A stretch of DNA of 63,768 nt from Schmidtea polychroa (lineage: Eukaryota). Location of the stretch: positions 176,514,001 to 176,577,768 of the forward strand of contig CM097885.1 in the NCBI GenBank assembly GCA_044892525.1, in the 5' to 3' direction. A program made the position numbers and the translations under genes. The notes under the pieces are model-generated. The model ran no database searches. It was not told the origin of the DNA and saw only the letters and a program-made list of their open reading frames with translations. Shown here one piece after another: positions 985-29,250 of the stretch; position 1 is the first letter of the stretch, and every line of letters begins with the position of its first letter.

Positions 985-1121
985 CACCCATGAATTGCTT
1001 CACATTGGTACTGTGCTATGCCGGCGAGACGTCAGCAGGCAGGTGAGCCCCTGCCTTAGGACTACTCCTTACTGAGGCCTCGACTTCCTCTCACTCGACT
1101 GCCGATGGAAGGACTTACGTC
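985..1121 (-). ncRNA. Conserved structured RNA motif of the LTR-like family (copy 1)
   Basis: GACGTAAGTCCTTC...GAGTAGTCCTAAGGCAGGGGCTCACCTGC...CAGTACCAA is shared with 8103 and 29111; the flanking stem covaries. Confidence 0.6.
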
Positions 1122-1384
1122 TAATCACGCTGACAAAACTCACGCTAACGTACACGAATGCAAATTTATCGAGGTAGGTCAAAATCCAGAAAACTTTCAT
1201 TCACCCCCGAATTGATGCTCATCTCTTCACCAAAATCAAAATAATAAGAACATCACGTTTATTATAATGTCATAACACTGAATTTTTGTACATTACGGAA
1301 ATTATTACCGTCAGAGAAAGAGTCAATGAAAATATAAGGTATTAGATTACAGCGAATGGCAGTCATTGAGATCGCGGTGGGTTT

Positions 1385-2134
1385 TCATTTTTCCCACTCG
1401 GTATCTTTCAGCAGTTCATCTAGATCAAAGAATTCAGCGGCGTTTTCTTCCCATGACACTCCAGTGGCTGAGACAATCGGCGCTGGAATCCCTGCGGTTA
1501 GATCAATAGATACATGAGAGTTATCGCCCTTGGTGAGATTTTCTGTGGAAGGGTCGTTGGATTTCGTTGATGCTCACTCACGCTGCCTCTTCTTGCGCTC
1601 GGCCCTCGATAACTGCCGACGCTTAGGCTTCGATATTGGTTGATTCCCCTGCAGCCCTACGGGTGCGGGTATGATGTGGGACTGTACTTTGCTGGTTCCC
1701 GTGAAGATAATATCCGGACGCTTCGGTGAGAGTTTGGTTTCGACGCACTCATGACAAGATCTTTTAAATGGAGACGATGATTTCGCCGAAGTGTCATGAT
1801 GCACTGGAAACAGGTTATCGGCTTCATTTATAGGAATTTGAACGATCTTCTTGGTCGTCGTTGCCTGGACATATACTTTATGTAATGCTTCGGACTGTTC
1901 TTTAATTAAACTTCGTTGGGCGCGGCTCTCGGAGATTAGAGCGTCCCGGCAGTGCTCGCTACGATATAGCTTTTTCTGCACTTCTTTCATTTGCACTGGG
2001 CTGAACCATGTGCCTTCCAGTTCGTCGATCTTACGTTTGTATCGACCGATCTGGGCTTGTAGGTCTTTGATCACCGCATTTCTATCCGAGCAGGAGAAGC
2101 AGGGACGTAGTGTTGGCTTGTTGTTCGGTATCAT
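1385..2134 (-). CDS. Uncharacterised element-encoded protein (CxxC, coiled coil, Arg-rich motif, acidic C-tail); in-frame TGA at 1574-1576
   Basis: Track ORF 1574..2194; the probable start is the ATG at 2134, just after a TTCGTTGTAG acceptor. After the TGA the frame continues 62 codons to SWEENAAEFFDLDELLKDTEWEK* (1385), matching homologues at 7268-7755 and 9001-9749. Confidence 0.65.
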
Positions 2135-2667
2135 TTGGATTACTACAACGAAAGGAAAAGTTATGACTACATCGGCAAATCGTGGATCAGACATAATGAC
2201 TTATTCACAGTTGCACGATTACTAAGGAAGGAAAGGACAAGATGAGTTGATGAGACAATTTTCCTCCCTTTGTGCTTAATCGCTGACATTCTATATGTTC
2301 TTTACAAGAATCACCCCTTAAGCCCTATATCATTCCTCTGACGAATGCAAACTATTTGTTAAAATTCAAAAAATTAAAAATTAACAGATTCATTAATTCG
2401 GAAATTTCCCTTTGGGTTACATAATTATGCATCACACCGAGAAATGAGATATACTACGCTGATCAATGCCCCAAACTTTCTCCTTTATGTCCTCCTAATA
2501 GGGCGCATATATAGGTAATCAAGAATTTATTGCTTAGATTTAATTATTAATTACAGCATTTAAAACAAATTTATTATTATTATCTATAAAATTTCTGTCA
2601 CTATTTATTAATGTCCAATTTAAAATATTCGCTATCGTATTCAACAATAATTCTATAATCAGTTAGA

Positions 2668-3117
2668 ATGTTGAGTCTAAAAGGTCGGAGTGTTATCACT
2701 ACTACCTTATCTAAAATATACCGATGCTGTTTCAGATACTTAACATTGAAAATTAGTTAATAGTTAATCCTAAGAATTTAACGCCTACTGTTATCGCTAC
2801 ACGAGATTTGTTACGGTAAGCATCTGCCAATCAAAATACATTGTATCTATTACTCGATACACTCATCTGTTATTACTTGTAACGACGGAATTTACACTGC
2901 ATATGTCACCTGGTGGAACGGTTATTTATCAATCATGTCGTTTCTCATTCACGCTCATGTTCAACTCTCATGGTTAGAAAATTGCTTTTATACATCTTCT
3001 ATTCACTGGAAATTTTCTGATACTCACATGTGGCATTGGAAAATTTTAGTTATCATCTCAACCTCTAGTTGTTTCTCACGGACATATGATGTTGGAATAG
3101 GTTATGATGAGTCGTAG
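2668..3117 (+). pseudogene. Antisense cargo ORF remnant in LTR-like copy 1 (hydrophobic, Cys/Trp/His-rich)
   Basis: One frame is open for 112 codons (2782-3117) in AT-rich DNA, in frame with an ATG at 2668 across three stops; no family recognised. Confidence 0.35.
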
Positions 3118-4957
3118 CTTCGTCAATATTGGAGATGTAAATAATATGATACCCCATTGCATAGATCGTTCAATCTCTATAAGTCCTATTTCAAGAGTAG
3201 ATATTCAAATCAATCGTAGAAATTCATTTGTGTCAGGTAATACGAATTGGTTATATGTGTGTATTAAATAAATCTTTGTCGCAACTTATTGTTATGAGTT
3301 GTTTTATTTTTTGACAATTATTGTTCATTTATTACTTTGTATCGACGTCAAAAGATCAAGATCTCGAATTTGGCTTATTGTCGCGAAAACTGAAGTTGAA
3401 TTCAAATTCTTAAAACGTCATAGAATTGCTTTAGTAGTGAAGGTTGATCGAGATTTTTTAAAGAACTTCGTGAGTTTAGAATTGTCGACGAAAATGGCAA
3501 GAGTAGCTTGGAAAAATAACACTTAACATCCCAGAGTCATTATGGAGACTCCCTCAGTCGCTGTGAAGCACATGTCTTATCCTACTACAAAATCGAAACG
3601 CATTATTCAATCTATGCCCTGACATTTTTACAGATTTTAGGTCACCTTCAGCAATTAGACCCGTGAAGAAGCCTTCACATTTCGGCCCAATCTAGCTGCG
3701 TGATTGAAAAACTCCATGTCCACCGGTGGAGCTCCCGAAGGCACCTCACACCATGACATGGAGTATCTCAACTCCACGTTTCTCGAAAATTTTTTGATTC
3801 ATAGAATTCTAATTCATAAAATCTTTGTTCATAGAAAAATCACAAAATTTCTAAATAAAATTCTTTTATTTCTACCAACTACAATCAACATCCAAATTAC
3901 TAAATTACTAATAATTAAAACGGAAATCAAATGAAGAGAATATTCTTTACTCATATTATATCAAGATTTTAGTCAATATTAATCATTTCAACTACTTTTA
4001 ACTTAGAGATAAGAGTAAAATAAAAATAAAGATCTCCTTACTATTGTGATCGGGGTTGAGGCTGAGTCAAAAACGTGTCGATTATGGCTTTACAACTAGT
4101 TCGTCTAATTCTGGTACTATTTAGTCCTTGAATGCTTAATCCGATAATGCTGTCGTCAAATTCGGTTATCCTTGAGTTACTGTGATCTCGAATGGTCGAA
4201 TTAACAGTTGATTTGCTGAAGTATTCTGGCTCTTGAATAAGTCCTATAAAATTTTTGAGTAAACGGTCATCTTAATGATTTTGGTGCCGGTTTATATAGT
4301 GATTTTTTATTTATGCGGACCAATCAGAATTGAGTACTGCTTATTTTATTAAATTAATTTGCTTTTCCTTATTTCTTTGGACTTTTTACTTATTTTTCCT
4401 ATTTTTATTATACCTTGTATTTATTTCTTAAATTCCTTATTATTTGTTGCATTTTTCGGCATCTTATTCGTTATCTTATTACCTTATTTTTAATTTTTTT
4501 CATTTTTTATTTTTTGTTTTAATCCTTATATTTCATTTTATTATTTCTTTCATACCTTAACTTATTTATTTTTAAAATTTGTTGTCTTAGTTTATTTTAT
4601 TCACATCCTATCTGTCTTAATTTTCGACGTTTTCCAAAGTTAACTTTTTTGACTCAGCCCAACAAATCGAATACGAAATTCAAAAAATTTACCGAAGTAT
4701 GCTTTACCAAAAATTTATGATTTGAATTTATGGTTTTAAAAAGTTTTCGTGAGTGTGGTTTAAATTTGTTTTATATTTTTCCAGTCTTCTTTAGGTAGTG
4801 TTTGTGACAACAAATTGTATTAAAATTGTAAGTATATATTAATAAATAGTTATTGTTAAATTAATTTTATTGGAAAACAATTGACGTTAAATTTATGTTA
4901 AATTGTGTTAGTTTTACTTAATTATATGTTAAATTTCTCGGTATTATTTTAGCCATC

Positions 4958-7054
4958 ATGAAGCGCGGTGGACAACCAGTTTTGTCTGATTTTTTTTCTA
5001 AAGAAGGTGAAGCCTGGTCAAGATATGACGCCAATAACAAACAGAAGAAGCAGAATCGCCACATTCAGCTAATACTGTGCAAATCAATGACGAAGTAAAA
5101 CACAATCTCCCAGATTGCTGGAAGCCCTTGCAATTTCAAGATTTTCAGAAGAAATATGATGGCTTATTAGTTCGAAATAAAAAATTGGGTTGTAATTATT
5201 GCGCGCAAATAGATTCAATAAAAGCGAAGGGAATTCATGTATCAGTTGAATGGAAAAGCTGCAATATTGAAGCATCTGGAAAAAATAAAACCATTCAACA
5301 AGCATTTCTCCGAAAAAAAATGAACACTTTTTATCTAAGGCTCACCAAGTTAGTGTACATCAGTTAAAAGGTCGTTCACAAGACGTAATTTTGCAATGTT
5401 TCGATAAAAGTAATGAAAAATACGTCGATTCTACATGTAAAATCTTTAATACTGTTTACAGTATAGCAAAAAGATGCAGACCATTTTCTGATATTCAAAA
5501 TGGGATTGAACTACAAGTTAAAAATGGATTGAGCATGGGAGTGAGACTCCATTCTCGCAAAACTGTAGTTAAAATTATTGATCACATTGCATCAGAAATA
5601 AAAAAGGAAATATTTTGCAAAATAATCGCAAAGGATTTGAAAATTTGCATCATAATCGATGAAGCCTCGACTATATCTAGTAAATCTGTACTAATAATTT
5701 ATTTAAAAGTTGAAGATTCTGATGTGCCACCAACAATATTTCTAGATTTAGTTGAATTGGAAGCATAAGATGCTGAAACCATATACACGACCATGTTACA
5801 GAGTATATATAAAGTTGAATTCGATATAAATTATTTGAAATCAAATTTGATTGCATTTTGTTCTGATGGTGCAAGTGTAATGCTTGGTCGTAAATCAGGT
5901 GTCAGCTCAAGACTTTCAAAAGATTTCCCTGGCACAATTATTTGGCATTGTTTAAGCCATCGTCTGCAATTGGTTTTAGATGATTCTATTGACACAATAA
6001 AACAAATAAATCATTTCAAGATATTTATTGATAAAATATTTTTCATATGATAAAGTGATTTTTCATAAATAAAATAAAAATCAGTTAGAACTTAAGAATA
6101 TTTCTGAAGAACTTGGGCTAGAAATTATAAAGATTGGCAGCTTAAGAGCAACAGTTGCTGTATGGAGGGCTTATCCAGCTTTATATAAATATTTTGTTTC
6201 TAATACGAAATATTCAGGAATGGCTAATCGACTTCGCAATAAATTCTTTTTACAAGATTTAGCAATAATGATTGATATTTTGCAAGAAATTTCATGTTTC
6301 AAACGCGCTTCAAGCTAGAAATTTAATAAAAAGATCCATGTTGGCCATTAAAATGATTAAAGAAAATAAAGGTATATATGAAAAGAAAGTGAATGAAGTC
6401 ATCAATTCAGATGCTTTTAAAGATATTAATTTTATAGAGCATACAATTTACAGTAGACTCCCTAGCCAAAAACTATTGGACGCAGTAATTGCTAATATGA
6501 GAACAAGACTAATGGATGATGATAACCATTTATTGGCAACAAAAAGTACGAAAAATGATACCAATAAACTTTTTGAAGTTATTAGCGTTCTGGAGCATGA
6601 TTCTTGGAACATCGATGAGATTGTGGTTCCACGGATAGCCGCAGAAGAGAAATTGGTCGGATTCACAGATATTTTTAAATACAACATCGACGTAAATGAC
6701 TTCCGTGACTTTTTGGAAAATGTTATAAGCAATCGCGAAATTTTTTTCATTCCATAATCAATACAAAGAGCAAAAAACATCAATACTGTAGCGATTAGTT
6801 CTGCGGAAGCAGAAAGAGGGTTTTCTACAATGAATCTAATATATTCCGAAAAAAGAAACCGTTTAATTGTTCAAAATGTTGCTAATCTCATGGTAATAAA
6901 TTTAATTGGTCTTCCTTTGGACATATGGAACCCTGAACGATTTGTTAAAACTTGGTTGAGGAAGAATCACTCTGCAGATGACAACAGAGTAAAAAAACCT
7001 GCACCAATAAACTATAATAATAATCAAATTTCAATTTGGAAATATTTGAAATAA
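4958..7054 (+). pseudogene. Disrupted hAT transposase (KIAA1586/ZNF862-like)
   Basis: Fragments show IIIDEASTIS (catalytic D), [25 protein letters not shown] and ISSAEAERGFSTMN plus the dimerisation domain; several stops and frameshifts. Confidence 0.9.
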
Positions 7055-7267
7055 TTTTAAACACTTTTTATATATATATATATATATAATAACTATCCTG
7101 TTTCTATTACCTTTTTTTAACTGTTTTAATTTAAAATAATATATGAAATTAAATAATGAATTGAAATAAAAACGATATCAAATTTTTGATTTTTTTTACG
7201 GCCGAACCGGTTCTCAATTGTTTTCCGGATACGAACCGGTTGTTAAATATTTTGAATCCCACCACTG

Positions 7268-7755
7268 ATGCAAGCATCAATTACAAAGAAGATCGTAGAC
7301 ATACCCATTGCGGAAGAAGACAACGTATTCCCGCACCACCATCTCTCATCGGCATCGTTATCTAACTCAGCTAAACAGGCACACCTGATTCATTCGAATA
7401 CCCTACGGCCAACAATCCCTGCCGAAGTAATTAGTACAGGCACTAGTCGAGCTGCCCCCAGAAAATAGATCTATCGACCCCATTCACTCTTCCGGAGGCG
7501 ACGAAAATCACCAAACGCCGGCAACCGTCTAGGGCCGAGCGCACAAAGAGAAGGAGGGCTCTCCAGGCTGAGAGAGAAGCGACTCTCATCGCCTCCGCCA
7601 AACCCCAAGCTCCAGTACCTTCAGCGGAAACCGTACTTCGTTCTCCTCCTGCGTTCAGGGTAATTCCGCTCACAAGTACGTCCTGGGAGGAAGACGCCCG
7701 AGACTTTTTCGATCTCGACGAGATCTTTGCCGGAACTTCCCCAAATACATTGTGA
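7268..7755 (+). pseudogene. 3' half of the element-encoded protein (copy B), one frameshift near 7455
   Basis: QASITKKIVDIPIAEEDNVFPHHH, EVISTGTS, TKRRQPSRAERTKRRR and TSWEEDARDFFDLDEIF align motif by motif with 1385-2134. Confidence 0.75.
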
Positions 7756-8102
7756 TTCGTTTCTTGTGTCGTAACTCATAAATATATTTTCTTGTCGTAA
7801 TCTATAAATATGTCTTAGTGTTGTAAATTATAAATATATATTCGTGTTATTGATCGATGAATTAAACGATTTCGAATGTTTGTTGGTGTTGAAGTCTGCG
7901 AATATGAAATTAAGCAGTGAATGCGGGGAGTGAAGATTAGAAGGTATATGGTAAGGTCAAACTTGCAGGGTAAAGAGGTGACGGAAAAACTGTAAATCTT
8001 TGTTGGTGTGTGTTGGAAGGAGATCGTTTTGGAGAATAAGGAATCATGGTGGAGATTGTTCGATGATGGGAATGATGCGTGCAATCCTTGAATGATGAAA
8101 AT

Positions 8103-8240
8103 GACGTAAGCCCTTCTAACGGCAGTCGAGTGTTAGTTAAGTCGAGTTGGGATGAAGGAGTAGCCTAAGGCAGGGGCTCACCTGCTTCATCGCAGCTCGC
8201 CGACATGACACAGCACCAACATGATGCGAATTGGTTAAGG
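8103..8240 (+). ncRNA. Conserved structured RNA motif (copy 2)
   Basis: GACGTAAGCCCTTC...GAGTTGGGATGAA-GGAGTAGCCTAAGGCAGGGGCTCACCTGC-TTCATCGCAGCTC. Confidence 0.6.
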
Positions 8241-9000
8241 GTCCCTTGGAACGATGACATGCTGCATATGCATTTAGGACTACCATCCCCTAGTAAGTGA
8301 AAATGTTTTCTGACCCGACCCAAGGCCCAGCAATATAAACACCGGAAGAGTCACATAATAATGCATTGATCTCCAGAACGAGGGAAAATGACGATAAATA
8401 ATAAATTTTCACCAAGTGCAATGATAATGTCAACATCTGCTATACGGCATATGGATCTCTAAAACTACTTCCAATAAATGTACCGGATATGCATAGTTAG
8501 ATTCCCCGAAATGTCAGTTATTTCATACAGTAGAAAGGCTACAATTTTGGAATGCGATATAAATTTTAATTTAAATCAATAATTAATAATTTTCCCCGTT
8601 GAATTTTCCTGGTAATAGTCGTTTTTTTTGCGACGTCATTCGAGCAAGTTGTTACCGAAATAAGTAATATTCAGTTATTAAGGTGGGTCGTCATACTCCG
8701 ATTGAATCTAGCCGGGGCTTATTCGATTGAAATTATAGGTTCAACCGCAATTAATGTGAGAAAGGTGTTGATATTAGGTTTGGCGCAGAATGTTGAACTT
8801 AACGGTATTAAATTTCGAGCGACGAAACCGCTGGCATGAAATGTTAATATGATTGATTGGAACCAGGGATGTTGCCGGTATGTGAACCGAATGATGAATG
8901 ACCAAAGGAGGGGTGAATGAGTTATTTTAGTATGCATCTTTCTGCCTGTAATGTGATTTGACCGAAACTCACTTATTTTCTTAATAAATTCGTTTTAGAT

Positions 9001-9749
9001 ATGGCCGTTCCGAACGCAAACAGCTCTACTCTACGACCTTGCTTTTCTTGTGCTGACAAGAATGTGTCAATGCACACCTTACAACTTGAAATCGGACACC
9101 TGAAAAAACGTACTGACTATTGGGGGGGGGGGGGGGGGGCGTGGTCACCCCCGTCCAGATGAAAGAAGCGAACAAGAAGATACTCCGGCTCGAACATTGC
9201 CGAGACAGTCTCTTGAAGGAGAGTCGTTCACAGCGTATCCATCTGCGAGAACAATCCCGAGCACTACATAAGGTTTGAACGTCTTTGGAACTCAAGAATC
9301 GTATCAATGGGTCTCCGGCTGTCGATCAGGGGAACATCTTTCCCAGCCACCATCTGAATGGAGGGGCAAGTTCCATGTCCGGGACACGGGAACGATGTGA
9401 GCACGCCATCAGTTCTTGAAGTCATCTACATCGGCACCAGTGTAGCTCCAACACCCAGCAAGGCGCCTATGTGGCTCCGGTCCCAGTTGTCGTAACCGGA
9501 AAACCCAAGCGTAAATCTCGTACACGCGCGGAGCGAACACAGCGTCGAAGAGCAAAGCAGGCAGAATCACAAGCAGCCCTAGACGCTTCCCATGCCAAAG
9601 CAGCTGCTGACATGGTTGCTGCAATCGAGTTCGCCAAATGTCCACCGTACCGAATTTTGTCTTCCGTCGGTTCCCGAGGAACGGAGGAAAACCAAGCCGA
9701 TTTCGCTCTTGAACAACTCATGCGAGAGGCCGAAGAGGAGGGATTTTAG
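9001..9749 (+). pseudogene. Near full-length element-encoded protein (copy C), disrupted
   Basis: MAVPNANSSTLRPCFSC...PVQMKEANKKILRLEHCRDSLLKESRSQR...EQSRALHKV*, NIFPSHH, EVIYIGTS, KPKRKSRTRAERTQRRR, DFALEQLM. A G18 run (9122-9139) and stops break it. A degenerate right end CCCCAACG lies at 9881-9888. Confidence 0.75.
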
Positions 9750-9889
9750 GTATCTTCTACCTCAATTCTACCCCAACCCAAGACGAGGTAGGATTAAGCG
9801 TGATGATTGCGGGAATTGAGCCATGAATGTATGATGTCTCCTAGACTATCAAAACGACGTGAGTCAACTTGAAGGGAATACCCCAACGA

Positions 9890-10770
9890 ATATATATACG
9901 ACTATGGGGTAAACGTCATTGACAATAATATTATATCTGCTGTGGTAGAAAGACAGGAAAACAATGAAATTGATACATCCCTCACTGGAATAAAGCATAA
10001 ACGAAGAAAATGACTATGACAAATTCTTTAGACTGTGGGATGCTTCCTCAGGAGGGGCGATGAAATCACCAACAGGTAGTGATGTGATCTTTCAACCCCT
10101 CGAGACTAGATATGATAATCTACATGAGACAATAGAAAGAATTGCTAAACAAGCAAATATGCAGGACGCAGAAACGATGATACGAGGTATGGGAAGGCCT
10201 CGAAAATCTGAAATCGCTGAGAAATCAGAGGAAAGAAAGGCAGCGAGCGTCTAAAAGATATAGCAAACAGGATGTTCCAAAAATCCAGGATGATAATAAA
10301 GAGGTGAATATGATAACGGAGCTAATTAATGCAATGAATACGAGACGATTCCCAGAAGCAAGACCATCAGTGTTAATAGAAAATATAGTTAAAAAATTTA
10401 AATTAATGAAGAGATTAGGGAATTGAGTACAGAGGAAGCGAATGTAGAAACGGTGTTAAAAATATTATTTACAACAGGAGTAAATAGGGACAAAGTGATT
10501 ACTGCGATGGCATATTTAATAGCGAGATACAAAAAACTTCTACGAATGAATCCAAAGGATCAAATAGAAAACATAGCTAAGCTGATATATAATAAACTAA
10601 AGATGGATGCTATGCCTTGGGTAACATTAAAGGAGGATGGAAATACTGTATGATGAGAGCCTAATAGAACGAGAAAGTATAAAAGCCAATAACACGGCGG
10701 AAGTAGATGATACGGAAGAGGCAGTTAAAAACCTTGTAAATAAAACCACTATGAAACCAAGTGTTAGATG
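9890..10770 (+). pseudogene. Decayed ~290-codon ORF of unknown family upstream of the env-like ORF
   Basis: Consecutive ORF pieces (10060..10254, 10423..10653 and intervening frames) joined by frameshifts and stops; helical, charged composition; not recognised. Confidence 0.4.
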
Positions 10771-11887: not shown

Positions 11888-12070
11888 ATGTCAATAGTAA
11901 TAATAGTAATAACATTATTATTAGATTTGATAAAAGGGAATAATGCAATCATAGCGTATGACTGTCAGAATCCCAAGTGGGGACAAAAGTATTCATTATT
12001 ATTTGTAGAAAATTGCCCATAGGCAAACCCAACAAAATTAATCATGGCAGACCCAAAGACCTTAATTTAA
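11888..12070 (+). pseudogene. N-terminus of a chuvirus-like / retroelement env-like class III glycoprotein, truncated
   Basis: Signal-peptide-like MSIVIIVITLLLDLIKGNNA followed by IIAYDC-x8-YSL-x5-C, the pattern I recall at the start of chuvirus-type glycoproteins and related retroelement env ORFs; continues *ANPTKLIMADPKTLI. TATA-like tract about 70 nt upstream. Confidence 0.55.
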
Positions 12071-12528
12071 CCTCCAGTAATTTTAAAAATTGATGAGTCA
12101 TCTGATGAGTCAAACTGATGAAACCGATAGAAATTTTAAAAATAAATTAATAAAAATACGCCCCTCCTCCCCCTCCCCCATTTGCCCTCCCTACAATGAG
12201 TCATATGTTTTTGTTCCCGGCTCCATCCTACTTGAAATTTTAAATGAAAGTTATTTTGATTTATAAATTTATTTTGAAGGAACCTGATGAACTTAGGGTT
12301 GTGAAAGGATTACAACTTGTAATGTATTGTTAAATTTTATCTTTTTCTTTTTTTTGTTGGTTTTAGTACAAAGTGTATTATAATTTTACACGTCGCACGT
12401 GGAGAAGATTTTATTTATTTGTTTTTTTATTTAAAAAAAACTATATAGCAATAATTTTTATCGCTATAGAAAATTGAATTTAAAAGATTAAAAAAAATCA
12501 ATAAAACATTTTTAAAAGCAACTAAAAT

Positions 12529-16925: not shown

Positions 16926-18689
16926 TTATTCGATTTTGTTCATTTGATTACTTGACAAATCATTTATACTCTGGGATTTATATGTGCCATTTGAGTTAGA
17001 TTTGCTTTGTAAATATGGTCTATTTACTGTATCCCCGATAATTAAAGCTGAATATCGACGCCTGATTGGACAATAAGAACGGTTTGTTGGTTTGAATGTC
17101 AATTCTGAATCAGATGGTGAACCTAAATTTTTACAGTAACTTTTAATTTTGGATTTTTCATTTATAATCTGTTTCTCGCTTAATGATCTTTTCGGTAAAT
17201 ATGAGTCATCTTTTAATAGTCGTTTCTTTTCTGACTGAACTAATCTAACAAGTTTAGCCACTCGATTTCTTTGATCACTATTTAGGTAATATCTCATTTT
17301 AGAATTGTTCAAAGATTTCCTTTTATTTTTTAGCGTTTTTTTTTGAATTTCATTGTTCTCAATATTTTCTCCATGACTGTTTTCTAATGAAAATTTTTCC
17401 CCAAAAGGTTTTGCAATGAAGTAATTGTATTGTTTTAATAACGCTAATATATTCATTTTAATAGCGTTGATAATCGCTTGCATATTTGAAATTTGAACGA
17501 GTAAGCATGATTTTTCTAACGGTTTTATAAATTTGATATATAATTCCAACCAAAAATCAGAGAATAATGGAACTTTAGAAAGGGACTGATAAATATAGGA
17601 ATTAATTTTAAACGACGTTTTGGCAACGTAAATCCAAGGCATTATTCTAAGAACTTCTCTAGATAAATTAGGATCTGTGGAATTGAGAAAGTTTATAATC
17701 CCACCTTCGCTATTTAAGCCTATAGAAACAAAATATTCGGTTAGAAAATACCAAACTTTGTAGTTATTGATCCATGATATACAGCAGTTCAAATAGGACG
17801 GGTCGGATATCAGAGGAATTTTATGAATTAGTGTGTCAAGGGCGTTTTTATTCGTTGAAAAAGCGTTGGTGCTAGTTTCTTGAGGTTTCCTACTGATATT
17901 TGATTTTGTTAAGCAAAGCGAATCTGTTTCTTCCAAATCAGATTCTTGAGATGATTTAAGTTTGAAAATTGAAATTGTATCTGATTCATTTTTTAGTTTA
18001 ATTTCATTTGCTGATCTCCATCGATTGCACTCAATCAAAAATTCTTTTGATAATTTTTTGGAAAAATTTTCATTCGTAGGAATGTCGCATGTGAGTGAAG
18101 ATAATATATTAAGAGCAATAAAATTGAATTTACGACGATCTTCGCGACGCTTGGTCATAGAAGGTCCAGGAGGATCGATCATTACGACAAGTGCTGATAT
18201 ATTATCTGCTCTGATTCGACGACGTTTCCATTGAGAAATGGAATATTTTACCAACGAAGCTGCAGGATTGTAAAAGAAATTTGAATTGATATTTGGATCA
18301 AGAAATACTCGACGTTCAGTTTCTCGTTCACATATTCTAACGAGTTCTATAGCAGCTTCAACGGGTACGACATTCCATAAACCATCACTTCCAAGTACAA
18401 TGCACCTATGTTCTGTTGAATCGAGTGAAATGCATATCACATCGGGTTCTGGAGATATGTGATATATACCTTGATTCTGGTCATAGCTCCATAAATCACC
18501 AAGTGATCTAGTTACTGCGAGAAATGGAACCTGTTCATATTCGACTGAATCACCTTCAACGATATCTTTTTTTTTATTAGAATTTTTAGGTCTATTCCAA
18601 ACTACTCGTTGGACACCGCATTTCTTTGCTAGCATACCACCGTATTTTTCTATGCGTTTCTTTTCAACCAAATTGGATGGTTTGTGTTC
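16926..18689 (-). CDS. PPM1D: PPM1D/Wip1-like PP2C phosphatase, exon 3
   Basis: After the acceptor ttcag at 18690: EHKP...RVVWNRP...VPFLAVTRSLGDLWSYD...SPEPD...CIVLGSDGLWN...RIRADNISALV, all PPM1D-type motifs, followed by a long divergent C-terminus. Confidence 0.88.
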   Translation of the reverse strand, partial: EHKPSNLVEKKRIEKYGGMLAKKCGVQRVVWNRPKNSNKKKDIVEGDSVEYEQVPFLAVTRSLGDLWSYDQNQGIYHISPEPDVICISLDSTEHRCIVLGSDGLWNVVPVEAAIELVRICERETERRVFLDPNINSNFFYNPAASLVKYSISQWKRRRIRADNISALVVMIDPPGPSMTKRREDRRKFNFIALNILSSLTCDIPTNENFSKKLSKEFLIECNRWRSANEIKLKNESDTISIFKLKSSQESDLEETDSLCLTKSNISRKPQETSTNAFSTNKNALDTLIHKIPLISDPSYLNCCISWINNYKVWYFLTEYFVSIGLNSEGGIINFLNSTDPNLSREVLRIMPWIYVAKTSFKINSYIYQSLSKVPLFSDFWLELYIKFIKPLEKSCLLVQISNMQAIINAIKMNILALLKQYNYFIAKPFGEKFSLENSHGENIENNEIQKKTLKNKRKSLNNSKMRYYLNSDQRNRVAKLVRLVQSEKKRLLKDDSYLPKRSLSEKQIINEKSKIKSYCKNLGSPSDSELTFKPTNRSYCPIRRRYSALIIGDTVNRPYLQSKSNSNGTYKSQSINDLSSNQMNKIE

Positions 18690-18755
18690 CTGAATTATGT
18701 TTCGAATTGTGTAAATTTTTTACTATTTTAATATATTTGGAATATTTTTATTATA

Positions 18756-19641: not shown

Positions 19642-20351
19642 TATATACAATAACATGAAAAGCATGAACTGGTTATATCCAGCGAAATAAGTCATATATT
19701 AAGTAAGAGTTGTGTAAGAGACGAAAATCCAAATTTTCGTATATTAAATATCATTTGAAACAGAAAGTTACCAGAAAAACTGCACGCAAAAATTGGCCAA
19801 ACATATATCTTATGCCATGGAAAGTTGATGAAAAATAATAGTAAAATTCAAATAAAGAAAACTATCTTAAAAGATGGGAGCGCCCTAAAATACGTCTTCC
19901 ATAATGTCAGAAAATTTTTATTATTTGTCTTCTAAAAATGCTATTTCTTATTGTAAGTGTTGTTATGTTTATATATTTCCATATAAATAACTATGACAAC
20001 TTCATTATATCTCATATGATTTGACTTAAGAGAAAGGAATTTTGTTTGGTATATCGCAAATTTATTTAGTAGAAAACAGATTTTTTAGATCATAAATTAT
20101 GCGTGATATATTGATAATTTATATATTACAAAATAAGATTATATTATTAAACTATAAAATAACAAATTTATAATTAACTATGAAAAAAAATTGTTTATCA
20201 CTAATGAACTAATATGTGAATGCATAAGATCTTTTTGGAATTCGATTATTGAAAGTATGATAAAAGTTGCTCTTTGATGTGTTCACTTGATTGTATGTCA
20301 AAAGATTAAAGTTACATCAATTTATAAGCATTATGAATTAGGCCCTATGAT

Positions 20352-20445
20352 TAAGGTGACCAGACGTCCCGGCTTTGACGGGACAGTCCCGATTTTTCAC
20401 GATTTATCCCGCGTCCCGCAACGTTTTTCAAAAGTCCCGACTTTT
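20352..20445 (+). mobile_element. hAT-like terminal fragment
   Basis: TAAGGTGACCAGACGTCCCGG...GTCCCG repeats resemble TAGGGTGACC-type hAT ends; partner end not identified. Confidence 0.4.
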
Positions 20446-21269
20446 AGAATTAAGTTAACTTTTATATGTATGAAAATCATTGTTTAGGATTCTTAAGAAT
20501 CCTACGGACTACTAAGACTAACATATTGCTTTTCTTACCCAGTTACATTGTATTTGTTTCTTAGATAATACACTTTATTAAATGTTCAAAATAAATCTGG
20601 GTCTGATATGGGGAAATATAGAAATATTAACTATTTTATAATGGTGTGTTTTGAAATAATTCTCTGAGATATTTGTCAATTTACAATTACATCGTAGCTT
20701 CAGCCGAACGTAGTTTTTCGTTGTTAAAATTACATTTGATATGCAATAAGTTAAGATGGTTTTGGCTATGTTGTCTATCGGAACCGGGGTATCAAATTCC
20801 AAAAATTTTGATGTAATTAACGAATTTATAACGAAAAAGACTAGAAAATTTATTTAATAATATTTTATTATTCTATATAATATAAAATAATCTGTTTATA
20901 ATAAAAATATTATTTAAATGTTCTTTTTTTTTGTCCCGCGCAAGTTTTTAGCCAAATCCAGTTTCAGTTTTAACAATTTGTATGTACTGATGCGTTTTTG
21001 TGCCAAAATTAGAGCTCGAAAGGAATGCCTTTTTAGTAGCTTTCTTTTCGTTAGCAACAGTTTTGAGTAATATGTATTTTTATCTAGCTTTCAAAGAAAT
21101 CAGTTAAAATGATACTTTTAGCATTCCTAAGAGTGATTGGTTGATGAACTAATTTTCTTTATACGGCACTTCGGTAGATAATATACACTGTAACGACTCT
21201 TGCTATTCTTCGAAATTTAAAGGGACATTGATGTTTCGTTCATAGTAATAGTACTCTCCAAAAACCAAT

Positions 21270-21455
21270 CGCCATTGATGACTTCAAGTATTTTTGAAGA
21301 GTGGCTTCATACAAATGATAAAAAATGTGGCCAAGAAAGTAGAAACGTATGCCTTTTAATTGATAATTGTTCCTCTCATCCGAAAATATTGACTAGAGAA
21401 TTGAGTAATATAAAGCTGATTTATTTGATTGAATCACTTAATGCTATGAGATGAA
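21270..21455 (+). pseudogene. Tigger DDE transposase remnant in PPM1D intron 2
   Basis: Frame reads LMTSSIFEEWLHTNDKKCGQESRNVCLLIDNCSSHPKILTRELSNIKLIYL (Tigger WMT..F..W / LLxDNCxxH motif). Confidence 0.75.
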
Positions 21456-21935
21456 GTCTAATTAGTATCATGGGAGTACCTAAGTGGATTGGCTTATGGG
21501 ATACAATCAACTTCCATGAAAAAACGTAGCCCAGCGACAAAAATGAAGCAAACAAGGCGATTACCTCCTGATATATAGTTTTGAAATGTTTGTAAAGGCT
21601 AAAGTGAATGAACCAACAACAAAACTTCTAAATCTCTGCAAGAATTTCCTCAAGTATATCTACATACACGAAACAGAATACCTCCATTCTAATTAAAAAG
21701 AACTGCAGTAGTAATTTTATAATTTTAATATAAACTGAATTTTAGAGAATAAAAAGCTTCATGCAATTTCGAATTTATAAATATAAATCTAAAATAAGAA
21801 AACACTGATGTCATTCTAACTAACATATAAATATTGCATCATCGTCTTAAAAATGGATATGAAAATGTAATTATGTAGCACATAGATAAATTATTTTATT
21901 AAAATTTATTTTATTTAGAGTATAAATAAGTATAC

Positions 21936-22114
21936 CACAGTCAAACACACTGGTTCCCATGAATCCGTGCGCGCAGAGACAATTTTAGAACATCCGAGAA
22001 CACATGCCGAATCTCCAACGTGGCCAATGTACAATTTTCTATTTCTTACTATAGCAATAGTAACCGTTGTTCCCGCTGTACTGTCAAATCCGCTTATTGT
22101 TTTTGACCAATTTT
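21936..22114 (-). CDS. PPM1D: PPM1D-like exon 2
   Basis: NWSKTISGFDSTAGTTVTIAIVRNRKLYIGHVGDSACVLG...CLTV; AG acceptor at 22116-15, GT donor at 21935; splices in frame to EHKP. Confidence 0.88.
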
Positions 22115-22167
22115 CTAAAATATAAATTTGGTATTTTAATTTAGTTTTTTTAATAATATAATCTTGC

Positions 22168-22465
22168 CTCTCTCTTTCCACATTAGCTGATGTGTGTTAA
22201 TAAACCCTTGCTTAATAGCTGATAGAACATCGTCATCGTTTTCACTCCAGAATTGTGAAATTTTTTTAATTTCATTTATTAAGTTCTTTTTAGCAAAACT
22301 GGCTGCTTCTGCTCCACCATGCCCATCAAATATTCCAAAAAATCCAAAAACAATACTTCCATTCACTTTTTCAAAATAACACTTGGAAAAATCTTCCATA
22401 TAGTTTCGATCGCCTTTGTCTAGACATTCTGTAACTCTTAAGTTAACGCCAATTTCAAAAACCAT
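22168..22465 (-). CDS. PPM1D: PPM1D-like exon 1
   Basis: MVFEIG...DKGDRNYMED...FFGIFDGHGGAEAASFAK...HQLMWKER; ends at a GC donor (AG/GCAAG). An upstream ATG at 22489 is an alternative start. Joined CDS is about 746 aa. Confidence 0.85.
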
Positions 22466-23429
22466 TAAAATAAAACGATAAATTATCATTCATTTTAAAT
22501 ATTTCATAATTTAAACACAAATATTGCATTTTATTAATTTTATTGCATTTTTCAATTAGACTTAGTAATTTAATAACATTAGGAATATTTTTAAATAAAA
22601 ATAATTAAAAACCCTTATTTAATTAATTTTATTGTACTTTTAAATTACATGGATTCCGTCAAGAATATTTCGTCTACGTCTCAACCTAATCTTAATGCAG
22701 CGATCTTCTATGTCTGATCCGTGTGTTGGGTTAGAGCCGAAAAATTGAGAGCTTGTTTAAATACGTCCGAAATACATAGCATGGAAAATTCCCCTAGTCG
22801 AATCAAATAATACAAAGCAAAATATGTAACTCCGTGAGGATAAATAAACAGGTATAATAAAAATTAAATTGCAGTTTCCAACATATTTAAGGAAGAAACA
22901 GCGAATTCGAAAATTCTGTCAACTCGGAAAGTAGAGAATAATAAATAAAAGAACGAATTAATAATATAAAAATTTTAAATGATTTTGGTCTTATTTACAT
23001 ACGAAGGACCACATTCAAATTAATTAAGAATGTTATGGCTCTTATTTGCATAAAACAATTCTAGAAAAAATAAATCTCATTTAATTTAAAATAAATTACA
23101 TAAATCTGGCAACACCCGAGTATGTGTGCGCAGGCATTCTTAAATTTTTAGAATTAAGCACTCTCTGATTTAAAGGAGTGGCAAAGAATATGTTGGTGGG
23201 TATTACAAATTTGTATTAATACCGACCAAAATTTCATTATTTCAACTGGTTCTAATTTTTTTAGCTCTGACAAAATTTTATGCTCTCAGTTTTTCGTTAC
23301 TAACTGAGTTTTATTCAAATTTTATGCATTAATATTTGTGATATTTCAATATTAATAAATTTTTCGTTTTATTTTTCATTCTTTTTTATATGCTTTCTAT
23401 AAATTCTATTCTTTTTGAAACGGCCCATA

Positions 23430-23889
23430 AACTATCAGGCCAGATTGGTCGCCAACAGTGGGATGGCGGGGACACCTCGAGTAGACGTGTCTCCTTATAC
23501 CATGAGAAATATCTGATTATAATACCTTTACGACCCAAGATATGGTTTAAAAGAAAATTCAAAGCTCCAGGTAACTAAGTCTTTTACTATATCCTGACAT
23601 GGCAGGCTGGTCAGCTAATGAGGACACCCATAAGAGGTCAGAACTGGACATGGTTAAGAAATCTGGTAAACAAACTTGACGCCCGATGTTCCAGCGTCGG
23701 TTATCAGTCGTGGTGGACCCAGAACGTATCGACCCGGTGATATGCACGTGCTCATTGATATGGTTATTGCCATAGGTACACGGATGGTAAAAAGTAGAAT
23801 ATTCATGAAGGCGTTTAGGGAGGAGTTCGTGACAAATCTAACAATAACTCTGAAATGTTAAAATAACACATCCCCTAGGCGCCAACACG
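23430..23889 (+). mobile_element. LTR-like element right end (divergent copy)
   Basis: CATAGGTACAC..GATGG...GGCGTTTAGGGAGGAG aligns with 29226-29292; ends CATCCCCTAGGCGCCAACA. Left boundary approximate. Confidence 0.55.
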
Positions 23890-24010
23890 TGATTCTAATG
23901 TTCATATCTCTTATAGGCACCTGATCTTCTTTGATCTGCTTCCTTTGAGCTTCAATCACCTTTTTCAACTTCTTCACATAGTCAGGATGAAACCATGTTG
24001 ACTCTAGGCT
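23890..24010 (-). pseudogene. Fragment of the element-encoded protein (copy D)
   Basis: RRY*SLESTWFHPDYVKKLKK aligns with GRYKRKIDELEGTWFSPVQMKEVQKK of copy A. Confidence 0.45.
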
Positions 24011-25227
24011 TTAATACCTCCTGACCAGTGCGTCAGCTCGCTATATCGACGTAGCCGTCTTGGATGTATAGAAGGTAACATCCATCAAGAACTTTTCAAA
24101 TTCTGGATCCACTACAAAAAATTCAAAATTCAATTCAAACATTTCTAACTAAATCACCGAAGTTGCTGAAGAAGTCGAAGCATCAGAAGTAGTTGTTGAG
24201 GTTGAAGAAACCGAATAAATCGATCAAGGCCATTCAATATATGTCATAAATAAATATTGTATTTTAATATCGAATTGTATTTTATTAAACTCAATAAAAA
24301 ATATGACAAGTAAATCCAGCGAAGGGTAGAAATGGAAATAAATTTGAATTAAATGAGAGGAAAGAATTTTGAAAATTGAAAAGTACTATTTTTATAGTTG
24401 AAAATTCTTTCATTTCATTTTATTGAATATATACTTTGCAGTAAAAGGCTTATATTATCATTTAATCTTTTAACATTATTATTATTATTATTGGTGAATC
24501 GCAGGTAATTTACAATTTATCTCGTCGTGCTGTCGCTGTGCCATCTGACACCCTTTGAGTGATCAATGCTGGAACTGTGTCGGATGTGTGAATACTCCCA
24601 TAAAGTGTGCGTACCTTTGTACACTATAATCGTCGAGTATTCTAGTGGGTTCACGGACTACCGTTAGAAGGCAATTGTCCGTCTTTATCTTGGCCGTCTT
24701 TTCATTTCTTTAGTGTTGAAAAAGCAAAAGTATTAAATGACACCAGTACAAATTTTTAATTTTTCACTGCAATATATGATATTATTTCGTACGTCAACTC
24801 GCGTTCTATCCATTGGCGCTCGTTAATTCTGCCAAACTCCAAGTTGCTACCCTGACCAGTCATTTGACGCTTTGTGATTCTTGTCTCAAATGGTTGATCT
24901 CATTTTATAATAAAAATAAATTACATGATTAGATTGATTAATCTGTTTTCGAATTTGGATTGTCAGCTACAACCACTTAGTTTTTCTCGTGACTATTTAG
25001 GATTTATAGAAAATATAATAAAACTCAAAACAACATATTTACTTTAATTAACATATTATTTAACGATTCCATTAACTTTACGGCTTAGGTAGAATGTTCG
25101 GTGATACGTGCTTCCTTATGTGACCGTTGTCGGGCGCGTTCTAGTTTACCTGACTTTACTTTACTTGGTAGGTCTCGTGATTCCGTCATTCGCATGATCG
25201 GGCCTACAATCAGAATACCCTTTGAGA

Positions 25228-25452
25228 TGTTGGGTGCCTGGAGTCGCTAGGCGATATAGTCATCGACTCTATCCTGATTTACTTGCGTCTCCAATCTTTA
25301 ACGCCTTGAGTTTCATTAATCTTAAGTAGCTTGAGTCGGGTACTAGGAGATTCATCGCGCCTTGTTGAAACCAAATGTCTTTTAACGTTTCACACTTGCT
25401 CTTGAGTTTTCAATTTTATAATGGGAAAGTTTACTAATAGGAATGCAGATTC
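25228..25452 (-). mobile_element. LTR-like element right end (minus strand)
   Basis: Minus strand reads AAGGCGTTAAAGATTGGAG...ATCGCCTAG...GGCACCCAACA, the same terminal motif order as the other copies; abuts the PPM1D duplicate. Confidence 0.5.
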
Positions 25453-25752
25453 CAAATATTATTTCAACTAGAAAACCATTTGTAGTGAAATAAATGAAAT
25501 AATATTAATTGGATTTTCCAAAAATAAGCAACTAAAATCAGTTGTATCCATAACTCTAAAGTTTATTAACATAAGTTTTGAAATAACAGGTTCATATTTT
25601 GCGAAAAAATTGGCTAAGATATTTATTTTGGAACTCAGAAATAGCGATTTATTCGATTTTGTTCATTTGATTACTTGACAAATCATTTATACTCTGGGAT
25701 TTATATGTGCCATTTGAGTTAGATTTGCTTTGTAAATATGGTCTATTTACTG

Positions 25753-26212
25753 CAGGGGTCTCAAACACGCGGCCCGCGGGCCGCATGCGGCCCCCTGCGT
25801 TACATTTGGCGGCCCGCAACGAAAAAACATAGATTTGTAATTTAACCAAACTTATTTAACAATTAAAATCATAATTGGCTGTATAAATTAAAACTTATCT
25901 TTTTAATTATTTTTATTTANNNNNNNNNNNNNNNNNNNNNNNNNNNNNNNNNNNNNNNNNNNNNNNNNNNNNNNNNNNNNNNNNNNNNNNNNNNNNNNNN
26001 NNNNNNNNNNNNNNNNNNNNNNNNNNNNNNNNNNNNNNNNNNNNNNNNNNNNNNNNNNNNNNNTAGTTTTGTTGAGTTTTTAATTAAATAAATATTAACG
26101 TCGGAGTTTCAGACTCCACATGTTCTGAAAAACAATTATTTATGTTGCGGCTCGCCGGCTCATAATACTAGTCTAATGCGGCCCGCAGGCCAGTTTGAGT
26201 TTGAAACCCCTG
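25753..26212. mobile_element. hAT (Charlie-type) MITE
   Basis: TIRs CAGGGGTCTCAAAC / GTTTGAAACCCCTG, exact 8-bp TSD ATTTACTG (empty site visible in the intact gene near 17024), GCGGCCCGC subterminal motifs; contains an N gap. Confidence 0.93.
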
Positions 26213-27935
26213 ATTTACTGTATCCCCGATAATTAAAGCTGAATATCGACGCCTGATTGGACAATAAGAACAGTTTGTTGGTTTGAATGTCAATTCTGAA
26301 TCAGATGGTGAACCTAAATTTTTACAGTAACTGTTGGGCTATAAACCGAGAAACCCGAATTTTTTTATAAAGAAATTAAATAAAATCTTGTTATAACATC
26401 AAATTAGGGTAATCAGTCAAGTATTAAGAAAAATAAAGAATAAGGAAGGGAGAAATAATAAAATAAAATAAAGAGATAAACAAAATCACCAAAATAAAAT
26501 AAACGACAAATAATTCCCAAACAGAACACGCAACCACAACTGAGAAGCAAAACAAAATAGCTAAGAAATATAAAGCAAAATATCAGAAAAACAAAATATT
26601 AATAATAAAACGAATAATAATCAACAGAAAACAATAATTAAAACAAAAAAGAATAAAATACAAAATCACAAACAGAATAACCAACAGGATCCAACAAAAG
26701 AAGGAGGAAAATAAGAAAAATTAAATTATTTAATAAATTACAAAATAAAAGCAATAAATAACCTGAAGAAAAGAGTTAAAAAGAATAAAAATAAGAAAAA
26801 ACACAACTTTACACAATAGCTGGATCCTGATTGAATGAAAATTAATATATAAGAAAAACAACTTGACTGATTCCTTCAATTCTAAAAATTTTCATTCAGG
26901 TAAAACTTTTCACGGTAAAAATCAATTCTAAAAATTTTCATTCAGGTCACTCATTAGGGGCTAATTTTATCATCAATTATACTCATTCGGAACTTTTATT
27001 ATCCATTTACAGTACAGTGTAGTATTCGATTCAAGGAGTTGAGATTCGACGAACAAGGAAAGATAAAAATGTAAATCTTGATTTGTATTTATTTTACGTA
27101 TATTTTATTATTCTATGTAACATTTAAATAAGTTAAAATATTAATGTTCTCTCTCTCTCTTTGATAATTTGATTTTTCACATCATTTATTTAATCATTTG
27201 AGTTGAATGTCGATGAGTTTACGATTTAGCGATGCCATTTTCAATGAAGAACGATTGGAGCATATTCCGAACAGTCGATATGAACGATGAATGCACCTGA
27301 GATGTGATAGTAATGATTAGAGAATAGTAGGAATCAACGAGCCAGTGTTATAACTGTGGAAGAACGATCGACCCTCTCCTGAGATGGGAGATATCGGAGC
27401 GTGAATGACAGGTAGAGATTGGAAGAAGGTTGGATTCAACATCAATTTTCTCGAGAATGATCAAATCAACCACCAGAATGTACAAAGGTTAGGAGCATGA
27501 GGAATTATTCCTGGCAGGGAATGAAGACTGGAGAATCAGATAGAAGAGAGGAAATGTTCCGGTGAATGGATATGGAGGATATGGAAATGGAGGATTGATT
27601 GAGAATATTAGGCATTGGATAGGCAGCTCTTTAGAGTAGGATTGATTGAGAAGAGAAGAATCTGTTGTCACCAAGGTATGAGGTACTTCAGAATGAGATT
27701 AGTATCTTGAAAATTGTGTATTGAAATCGTTATAATTAAAATTTCATTTTATTTTTTATTTATTTATCATTAATATGTGTGGCGAGACATGTTTGGGAAG
27801 ACGTTTGGGTATCGCTAGCACTCGTGCCGGTGGTAATCAGATGATTTTTGCAGATGGGAACGCCGGGGTGCAATTTAACTTGATAGATCTAAAGTTTGTT
27901 CGTTTTGGAGTTGATGAATAGAGAGTATTGGTTCT

Positions 27936-28553
27936 TCATATCAGTAATGCACATAGATTGATGAATATATAAGCCAGAATCATTCCATCAGGCAACCACT
28001 TTTGTAAGATAGGCGTAATAAGCAATCCACTGTACGCAAACATCGTTGGCAAGAAGCAATGAATCCAATGGTCACACTTGATTTCGTTGAGAAATTGGTC
28101 CAGACACTTATTTCCTGAGAGTGATTCGACCAGGTCGACATATAGCACTTTCTAACGAGTTGACATATCACATTAAAATCTATATATTTTCCACAGTTAG
28201 TTGATGTAAATAGCGATTGTTTATCCATGAGATTCCGTAGAATCGGAAAACGCAGTATAACAGCAGAATTTCAACTTTTGATAATCATCTTGTATTACCG
28301 CCGCTGTTGAGGAAATCGACACAACATCCGGTCTATTCTGGAAACGTTCGTAGACTTTGATATATTTCATACGGCCAAATCGAAATAATCGCCTCTCCTC
28401 GTCACGAGTGAAGGTAAACAGGGTGCACCGTGAACTATCCGCTAACAAGCAATTGCAGAAAATTATCCATTCGTGATAATCACGATTTGTATACAATGGG
28501 TAGAGACAGAGCGTCAATATCAAAAGTAAACTATAATTAAGGCCCTGATTCAC
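27936..28553 (-). pseudogene. Antisense cargo: signal peptide + Cys-rich ectodomain + C-terminal TM protein, two frameshifts
   Basis: Three overlapping track ORFs (28221..28553, 27980..28228, 27936..28148) concatenate into MNQGLNYSLLLILTLCLYPLY...many Cys...GMILAYIFINLCALLI. Confidence 0.45.
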
Positions 28554-29110
28554 TTAATTTCCAAGTCCCAGCACAATGTGTATTCATCGAAAATAAATCG
28601 GAGTCCTCGTTTAATTTATCTCGAATTCGCCTTAAATCTATCAAGAATGTTTATTCTAAAATAAACAATGGCCTAGCATAATTAAATCTTAAAATCAGTT
28701 ACACTATATCGTACCATAAATAAATAGAGTTGCCTATTAATTAAGGCAGAATGTGGTCGAAGCTGCAAATTAAATTAGATAATAAGTCGAATAATAGAAA
28801 GAATGGTCTTAAAAACGAATTACGGCAAACCTAGGGATTTTAATTTAAACAAACGGGTGAGTGTGCGAAGATCGTCCCTGCAAATTTTGTTTTTTCCATT
28901 TTAGATTAATTACTTTCAGGTCCCAAATTGTTAATTTTCGTAAAACTGAACTTACGATTAGGAAAACTTATGGTTACATTAGGATTTTTCTTGATTTATT
29001 TATCTTTAGCATTTTTCTCCGAATAAGTAGTCGTGCTGAAATAAAGGAAAACTGGAAACAACCTCACTTGGACCAGGGATATGTTAGAAATGGAAGAGAT
29101 GAATGAAGTA

Positions 29111-29250
29111 GATGTAAGTCCTTCTGGTGGCATTCAAGAACCCGAATTTTGAAGGTCAGGATGAGTAGTCCTAACGCAGGGGCTCACCTGCTCCTGAGTT
29201 CCAACCCATGTGTGCAGTACCAACATGATTCGTTGTCATGGGTACACATG
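29111..29250 (+). ncRNA. Conserved structured RNA motif (copy 3)
   Basis: GATGTAAGTCCTTC...TCAGGA-TGAGTAGTCCTAACGCAGGGGCTCACCTGC-TCCTGA...CAGTACCAACATGA. Confidence 0.6.

Follow-up and report, generated by a model that had tools for sequence, protein, structure and literature searches.

Does a short word that recurs in one stretch of planarian DNA mark a functional RNA and, if so, to which element does that RNA belong and what does it do there? The stretch, hereafter the window, comprises 63,768 nt of Schmidtea polychroa (assembly GCA_044892525.1, contig CM097885.1, positions 176,514,001-176,577,768 of the forward strand). A first-pass annotation had noticed three copies of a core word in it, and had placed around them a conserved RNA structure lying 230-270 nt from the right end of some element. 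The three copies are borne out, at 1050-1067 on the minus strand and at 8158-8174 and 29163-29180 on the plus strand, where shuffling (100 trials) leads us to expect none, and from the start of the motif it is 267, 229 and 249 nt to right ends at 854, 8332 and 29360. We argue below that the word lies in a covarying RNA fold at the ends of the long terminal repeats (LTRs) of giant retroelements that appear to be of the Burro type, and that this fold probably, on balance, serves the start of their reverse transcription.

Since the question of what the RNA does depends upon which element carries it, we turn to the rest of the genome. A slightly looser version of the core word has 545 exact matches in the window's own genome (781 Mb searched), and many of them form same-strand pairs about 26.3 kb apart, which suggests the two LTRs of one very long element. 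One such element, which we call type A, is covered by four separately read stretches; it spans about 30.5 kb, its LTRs of 4175 bp are 99.97-100% alike, and it is flanked by a 4-bp target duplication. Pfam searches of its interior, on the frames of loci L044 and L045, returned gag, zinc knuckles, a viral fusion glycoprotein, protease (PR), reverse transcriptase (RT), RNase H (RH), integrase (IN), ankyrin and MATH. In the passages covered of their description (PMC6431247), the Burro elements of planarians have the same domain list, with an env-like domain between gag and pol, and Burro / GYPSM1 is further alike in its length of about 30.5 kb, its long LTRs, its one polyprotein (gag, zinc knuckles, env-like fusion domain, PR-RT-RH-IN, ankyrin repeats) and its MATH and RING frames. 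By its length of more than 30 kb, its long LTRs and its matching domain list, the type A element is recognisable as a Burro-type giant gypsy-like LTR retroelement. The interior was read for one type A element only, so that the Burro domain list rests on type A; the window copies are LTR only, and have in common with that element the LTR ends, an LTR frame and the RNA domain. By these shared features, the three window copies appear to be LTR ends of Burro-type elements. A search with the RT turned up nothing but near-identical copies, and we drew no more on it.

An 18-nt primer-binding site (PBS), complementary to tRNA-Pro(TGG) of the same genome, follows 7 nt past the 5' LTR. This 7-nt spacer, longer than is usual between LTR end and PBS, is found in nearly all copies (locus L043, 6627-6633, and 87 other loci). 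Before the 3' LTR, positions 8800-8836 of L045 are GC-rich and partly self-complementary and hold no purine tract; plus-strand priming of the element may be unusual. After the PBS, a RING-finger frame at 7102-7581 of L043 may be related to the IAP-like region that has been reported in Burro1. The tRNA-Pro(TGG) genes stand in a 475-bp tandem array at G000:C1:130.90-130.95 Mb (L032), and the tRNA-Pro 3'-end pattern has 2190 matches genome-wide.

Since we wished to avoid selecting copies on the motif itself, we searched the genome for the tRNA-Pro PBS alone. Exact PBS words number 1079, and from the 100 matches listed we drew 90 PBS-anchored loci. The domain is carried by 87 of the 90; in the remaining three, the region is swapped for unrelated sequence. 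One PBS-anchored copy escaped our parser, yet scores 102 bits with the covariance model R1, and 86 were parsed for the pair counts given below (about 120 copies were parsed overall). The copies sort into about six lineages, here named types A to F, and into 26 clusters in total; type F is the most frequent PBS-anchored cluster (33 of 90), and type E accounts for about 29 of the 86 parsed copies. R1 has no match in 20 kb of L044 and L045, mostly the interior of one type A element. Outside the window's own genome, ten viral matches to the motif all lack the stems; these and the 80 listed of 82 metagenome matches score at most 16.5 bits with R1, and look like chance.

The domain lies within the final 250-300 nt of the LTRs, directly 5' of the PBS. 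Read along the RNA, it consists of hairpin I, a long variable stem II that carries a helix H, hairpin III, and a terminal hairpin whose closing base pair is just a few bases short of the LTR end. Hairpin I, which the first-pass annotation had drawn as GYC-CTTC..-GGC upstream of its core, is conserved as CC-UUCUA-GG in 87 of the 90 PBS-anchored loci, and its loop is UUCUA in most of 119 copies. A T-loop, which has a purine at the fourth loop position, was considered for this loop and set aside on its sequence. Helix H pairs AGUNN with NNGCU, and is separated from the long variable stem beneath it by a loop with a single pyrimidine against CAC; all five of its pairs are present in 79 of 86 copies, and the fourth varies among C-G, U-A, G-C and A-U. 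Downstream of helix H, hairpin III has a AGUACCAA bulge facing one G. The CAC loop is like the C-loop motif (IL_73276.5), as far as its description was covered (PMC4551918), in setting a three-nucleotide CAC strand against one variable base between Watson-Crick pairs. Where the listed C-loops have U-A, however, 20 of 26 clusters have C-G, the comparison being one of sequence, in which non-canonical pairs are unseen. The type E loop, UCACU/AYA, fits the pattern N-C-A-(A/C)-U opposite A (0-2 bulged bases, N) in the covered part of the same source (PMC4551918).

How strongly do the copies support this fold? We aligned 27 of them, hand-chosen representatives of the roughly 120 parsed, from sequence alone (alignment A2). 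Among its 768 cells, 93.5% are paired, and double changes occur in 22 of 29 pairs. None of 500 shuffles reached this level of pairing, and slid partners give 32-41%, a control against which the fold has a bias in its favour, having been derived from the aligned sequences themselves. On a tree from the same alignment, the true pairs show 51 coincident changes, as compared with 14.4 +/- 3.2 for mismatched columns (0 of 200 trials). RNAalifold, unaided, recovers stem II, helix H and hairpin III from the 27 copies; hairpin I, whose outer stem shifts register between lineages, is absent from its prediction. The window copies, taken singly, fold modestly better than shuffles (z -0.9 to -3.0).

Covariation in this larger alignment is strong, and a comparison with Rfam gave no match in the window at E up to 1, and two weak, unrelated matches elsewhere in seven loci. 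Two further statements of the first-pass annotation, that the flanking stem changes its sequence while keeping its pairing and that no reading frame is conserved through the structure, agree with what we find, the former in both the pair counts and the alignment. Thus, we conclude that the domain is, as far as its sequences can tell, a strongly covarying folded RNA. The changes also distinguish the two strands. G-U combinations outnumber A-C combinations by 42 to 4 (19 to 4 without a near-invariant U-G pair), and the plus strand has the better folding z in 25 of 26 clusters; both observations indicate that selection acts on the sense, or plus-strand, RNA.

The fold differs in several respects from the one first proposed. 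The core word had been called near-invariant, which describes all three window copies; it is specific to some subfamilies, and its exact form occurs in 3 of the 90 PBS-anchored loci. A GCAGG/CCUGC hairpin, which overlaps helix H, has its five pairs in 3 of 86 copies as against the 79 for helix H, and in the alignment 98.7% of the cells of helix H are paired, as against 81.5% for the hairpin first proposed. Single-sequence folding does yield the GCAGG/CCUGC hairpin for two of the three copies (1 and 3), so that on those three the reading was fair. In subfamilies with GGGG in the helix H region (1039-1067 and 29163-29191 in the window), both folds are possible. A subfamily-specific switch between the two is conceivable. 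A further hairpin, TCGA/TCGA or TTCAA/TTGAA, is found in 3 of 26 clusters, exactly the three window copies, and a pairing of CCUU with AAGG is unsupported, since in 16 of 26 clusters AAGG is placed upstream of the helix, for the most part within the long stem. Hairpin III with its bulge, the terminal hairpin, a fourth copy, a decayed fifth LTR end, the Burro-type identity of the LTRs and the link to a tRNA-Pro primer had no place in that account. Its general proposal of a functional RNA element nevertheless survives, on the covariation, the G-U bias, the plus-strand folding and the want of an Rfam match, although the fold proposed for it was partly wrong. No conserved pseudoknot was found; one between the bulge and the GGGGCUCA loop was dropped, the same bases forming a plain helix in other lineages, and a kissing contact between the loop of helix H and the D-arm box described below was dropped as well, there being no covariation by eye.

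It is important to ask, too, where in the transcript the domain lies. In a type F copy, a TATA box and an initiator-like word stand about 1 kb ahead of the LTR end, with AATAAA at -845; 8 of 8 copies of type F share that TATA box, between -967 and -1088. In run X6, one type F contig bears an A tail of 22 nt, 13 nt past this AATAAA and about 830 nt short of the LTR end; the genome has no run of A at this place. Copy 1 of the window has a predicted promoter and poly(A) cassette at 3865-3960 on the minus strand (by sequence scan: a TATA-like box, an initiator-like word 26 nt on, and AATAAA). It stands about 3.1 kb before the right end, so that about 3 kb of this LTR would be U5; the segment next to it is homologous to what lies beyond the poly(A) site in type F. 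The domain is likely to be the far end of a long U5, occurring once per genomic RNA and adjoining the PBS. No RNA data set was listed as containing the type A stretch, and contigs aligned to it gave no transcript ends. An 83-nt skip in run X6 was considered as splicing and rejected, since genomic type F copies hold two or three units of that repeat. Near the putative start of U5 there is a second structured segment (window 3649-3778, minus strand; L068 793-925), which is 80% alike between types C and F and folds into two long arms with apparent compensatory changes; neither the type A nor the type D LTR tested showed it.

What might such a domain do beside a PBS? In our view the tRNA-Pro primer link is the best functional clue, and on balance the domain is probably a cis-acting replication element of the genomic 5' leader, which places the primer tRNA and supports the start of reverse transcription. 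With transcription starting and poly(A) being added upstream, the domain would sit in U5, once per genomic RNA, by the PBS. The tRNA's 3' end would anneal to the PBS, and the loosened D arm would then pair with a box of 12-17 nt in the domain, as in Ty3. The invariant loops (the UUCUA hairpin loop, the Y/CAC loop and the AGUACCAA/G loop) would shape a tertiary platform for Gag/nucleocapsid or reverse transcriptase, and packaging may share the same domain.

The pairing with the primer was assessed with 15 windows of the part of tRNA-Pro that the PBS leaves free, each set against the LTR ends of the 26 clusters. The D arm is the best-pairing window (mean z -1.33; 12 of 26 clusters below -1.5). 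For nt 9-24 of tRNA-Pro, the gain over shuffled LTR ends is -2.95 kcal/mol, which none of 134 shuffled D windows matched, and the D-arm window ranks first of 55 (the next at -1.38) in a comparison with 44 windows from four other tRNAs of the same genome, two of which are nearly identical. As an aside, tRNA-Gln(TTG) and tRNA-Arg(TCG) of this genome differ at two positions. The box is present in types A, C and D and weak in B and F; its place is -50 to -60 for B, C and D and about -300 for A, and its variants at a fixed place are mainly C/U changes opposite the G run of the tRNA. A GAACCC(G) word complementary to the T arm is found in 69 of 90 loci, with no enrichment over shuffles, and has an internal partner in types A and E. 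Other contacts were considered and dropped: the GGGGCUCA loop as a second PBS, since it is not conserved (4 of 90 loci keep it); CCUAA as an anticodon reader, for the same reason; and a box for the tRNA 5' end at the LTR start, which copy 1 alone has.

Several observations weigh against a replication element that works through its primer. The placement in U5 comes from one type F contig of run X6, a run only guessed to be RNA, and no promoter cassette was found in the types A and D scanned. The D-arm box was spotted first and tested afterwards, on 26 clusters that are related (about six lineages), and it is absent in type E, with its large share of the PBS-anchored copies, and in L129. A duplex test that takes, per cluster, the best of all tRNA windows did no better than shuffled tRNAs, and windows of the T arm show no enrichment. 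Helix H and the three loops, which are the best-conserved parts, are not complementary to the tRNA, so that the pairing leaves their role unexplained. Finally, a search for a family with another primer tRNA found none, its 13 matches being changed Pro sites or unrelated places, and covariation between box and primer could therefore not be shown.

Contacts between a primer and its template beyond the PBS are described in other elements. In the sources as far as covered, the D arm of the Ty3 primer pairs with the element RNA and extended primer-tRNA interactions occur in Ty3 and Ty1 (PMC5371799, PMC3592414), gypsy of Drosophila has a second tRNA site (PMC1635307), and retroviruses have primer pairings outside the PBS (PMC8473020). 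The Burro domain is like Ty3, Ty1 and gypsy in having, beyond the PBS, a stretch that complements another arm of its primer tRNA, here as computed from sequence. Compared with what is covered of Ty3 and Ty1, however, its PBS is a full 18 nt and unsplit, the box lies in the putative U5 rather than in U3 or gag and inside a large covarying fold, and the place of the box differs by lineage (about -55 for types B, C and D and -300 for A, with no box in E). With the U5-PBS region of HIV-1 (human immunodeficiency virus 1; primer activation signal, tRNA-like element), as covered in PMC8473020, it shares a structured segment of U5 (here the putative U5) right before an 18-nt PBS, but neither common sequence nor an Rfam match, and no anticodon mimic was found. 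RNA structure, primer and U3/R/U5 layout go unmentioned in the passages covered of the Burro / GYPSM1 description (PMC6431247). A search of the literature turned up no account of this RNA; its coverage stopped short of both main Burro papers with their supplements, which could bear on novelty. Primer-adjacent leader structures of LTR elements are already known as a kind, and this Burro fold is best filed as new among them. Such leader structures are well mapped in a few models, namely Ty1, Ty3, gypsy and some retroviruses.

A more ambitious form of the replication reading may also be formulated, in which the domain is a primer-loading platform: a compact tertiary fold with two C-loop-like turns and a docking hairpin would grip tRNA-Pro by its shape and by the movable D-arm box, and would pass its 3' end to the PBS. 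We hold this to be rather improbable. In T-box riboswitches, a specifier codon loop and a UGGN bulge read the anticodon and the tRNA 3' end; a T-box proper was rejected here, since CCUAA and GGGGCUCA are not conserved and the bulge is AGUACCAA.

Among the rival explanations, the one that survives best is that Gag/nucleocapsid reads the domain as a packaging or dimerisation signal, the D-arm match being incidental or a secondary gain. The fold, but not the box, is kept in all lineages; a position in U5 would mark only read-through, full-length RNA; Gag has zinc knuckles; and the conserved purine-rich bulges would suit binding by a protein. Since the helix H loop is free to vary, since no conserved self-complementary loop was seen, and since the D-arm window outdoes all controls, we regard this explanation as unlikely, if still a serious contender.

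Somewhat more doubtful is a role in the control of expression, whereby the domain would be a response element for a basic protein encoded in the LTR, or an internal ribosome entry site (IRES) for the frames past the PBS. Rex and Rec response elements are a parallel to the former. The protein in question has about 250 aa and a basic KPKRKR-like motif (window 1574-2200, minus strand; L043 5326-6090), and in types A and C an acidic-hydrophobic tail that we take to resemble an activation domain; in types A, C and E, the frame with basic motif and acidic tail stops 340-570 nt short of the LTR end. This frame would come first in the RNA, so that later frames would need another route to a start, and the leader of Drosophila gypsy has an IRES, in the part of the source covered (PMC1635307). 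Type F, however, keeps the domain without the LTR-encoded protein, no frame of at least 90 aa being present in the 1.5 kb examined before its PBS; the next frame after the LTR in L043 begins past about 475 nt of AT-rich sequence from the LTR end; and the LTR protein has no known relative, a search for homologues and Pfam families having given only atlas leads below 0.9.

The first-pass annotation had also allowed for an unclassified ribozyme. Several near-invariant unpaired positions do lie in asymmetric loops between covarying stems, an arrangement known also from small ribozymes. A cut in U5, on the other hand, would separate R from the PBS and so block first-strand transfer, and a single copy per transcript could not yield circles of the retrozyme type. 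No conserved pseudoknot was found, and the lack of any Rfam match in the window agrees with the earlier verdict that hammerhead, twister, pistol and hepatitis delta virus (HDV) ribozymes do not fit. The core words of twister, pistol and hairpin ribozymes occur in none of the 26 clusters, and for the hammerhead there is one permuted, hammerhead-like match among them. A 7-letter word like the L3 of HDV occurs on the minus strand in 10 of 26 clusters; inspection of the plus strand by eye showed no P2 partner, and an HDV-like fold built on hairpin I was dropped for the want of that partner and for a P1 register that differs, by eye, between types. A self-cleaving ribozyme of an undescribed class is thus very improbable. 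Hardly to be credited, too, is the proposal that the structure is selected in single-stranded minus strong-stop DNA, which a U5 of 0.8-3 kb would make unusually long and able to use structure, or that DNA-binding sites are conserved: the type E minus strand folds about equally well in raw energy, but the plus-strand excess of G-U over A-C and the better plus-strand z in nearly all clusters speak against it, and compensatory changes exclude a plain DNA site.

We can now describe the copies in the window itself. Copy 1, a type C solo LTR of 3811 bp on the minus strand (854-4664), has TGTTGGG...CCCAACA ends and a 4-bp duplication, AATC, on both sides. Its core domain, comprising hairpin I, stem II with helix H, and hairpin III, occupies 979-1131 (R1 133.3 bits, a training member). 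Within it, and likewise on the minus strand, the apical stem and loop of hairpin I lie at 1101-1111 (UUCCAUC here, UUCUAUC in most copies), helix H with its CAC bulge and a putative C-loop-like internal loop at 1039-1063 (the motif form as covered in PMC4551918), and the conserved AGUACCAA bulge of hairpin III, facing its single G, at 1005-1012. The box complementary to the D arm of the host tRNA-Pro lies at 899-910 (minus), and the part of the LTR-encoded frame at 1574-2200 (minus) includes the basic motif and has no Pfam match; its relatives end in the acidic-hydrophobic motif.

The other copies are less complete or more diverged. Copy 2, on the plus strand, is a truncated LTR remnant (7268-8332) of type B, whose core domain (8093-8249; R1 102.7 bits, a training member) has a damaged 3' arm of hairpin III, and whose D-arm box (8282-8293) is weak, with z -0.1. 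Copy 3 is a probable solo LTR on the plus strand (26332-29360), its 5-bp flanks differing by one base; its core domain, of type D, lies at 29101-29250 (R1 125.4 bits, a training member) and its D-arm box at 29309-29330 (z -3.6). Copy 4, of type E, has its core domain at 24543-24690 on the minus strand and its LTR right end at 24492; it was not a training member, and R1 scores it at 66.9 bits (E 3e-16). The decayed fifth LTR right end (23760-23887, plus strand) keeps half of hairpin III and the terminal hairpin, its core being replaced by other sequence.

Copy 1 lies inside a decayed hAT transposon (648-7267) with terminal inverted repeats, which abuts the truncated copy 2 and for which no target duplication was found. 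Elsewhere in the window are a long host exon with a PP2C phosphatase domain (16926-18719, minus strand), a broken ordinary gypsy-type element with zinc knuckle and RT (49043-52975, minus strand), and a non-LTR element, likewise broken, that carries RT and an endonuclease-like end (53782-59296, plus strand).

In the parts of the literature covered, the Burro family is reported to be highly abundant and active in planarians (PMC8532177), and support of regeneration by it has been reported, as cited in PMC13465017. For this giant, env-bearing family we now have a fold backed by covariation, together with a covariance model that is a sensitive marker for locating diverged Burro LTRs. The layout suggested here would include a very long U5, of 0.8-3 kb, which in some lineages would harbour a gene. 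The domain would constitute a new class of RNA only if the tRNA-gripping or the catalytic reading proves true. In the former case, an animal retroelement would possess a tRNA-recognising RNA of a T-box-like kind, and the places of the box across lineages (-55, -300 or absent) would amount to a natural experiment on the evolution of primer capture.

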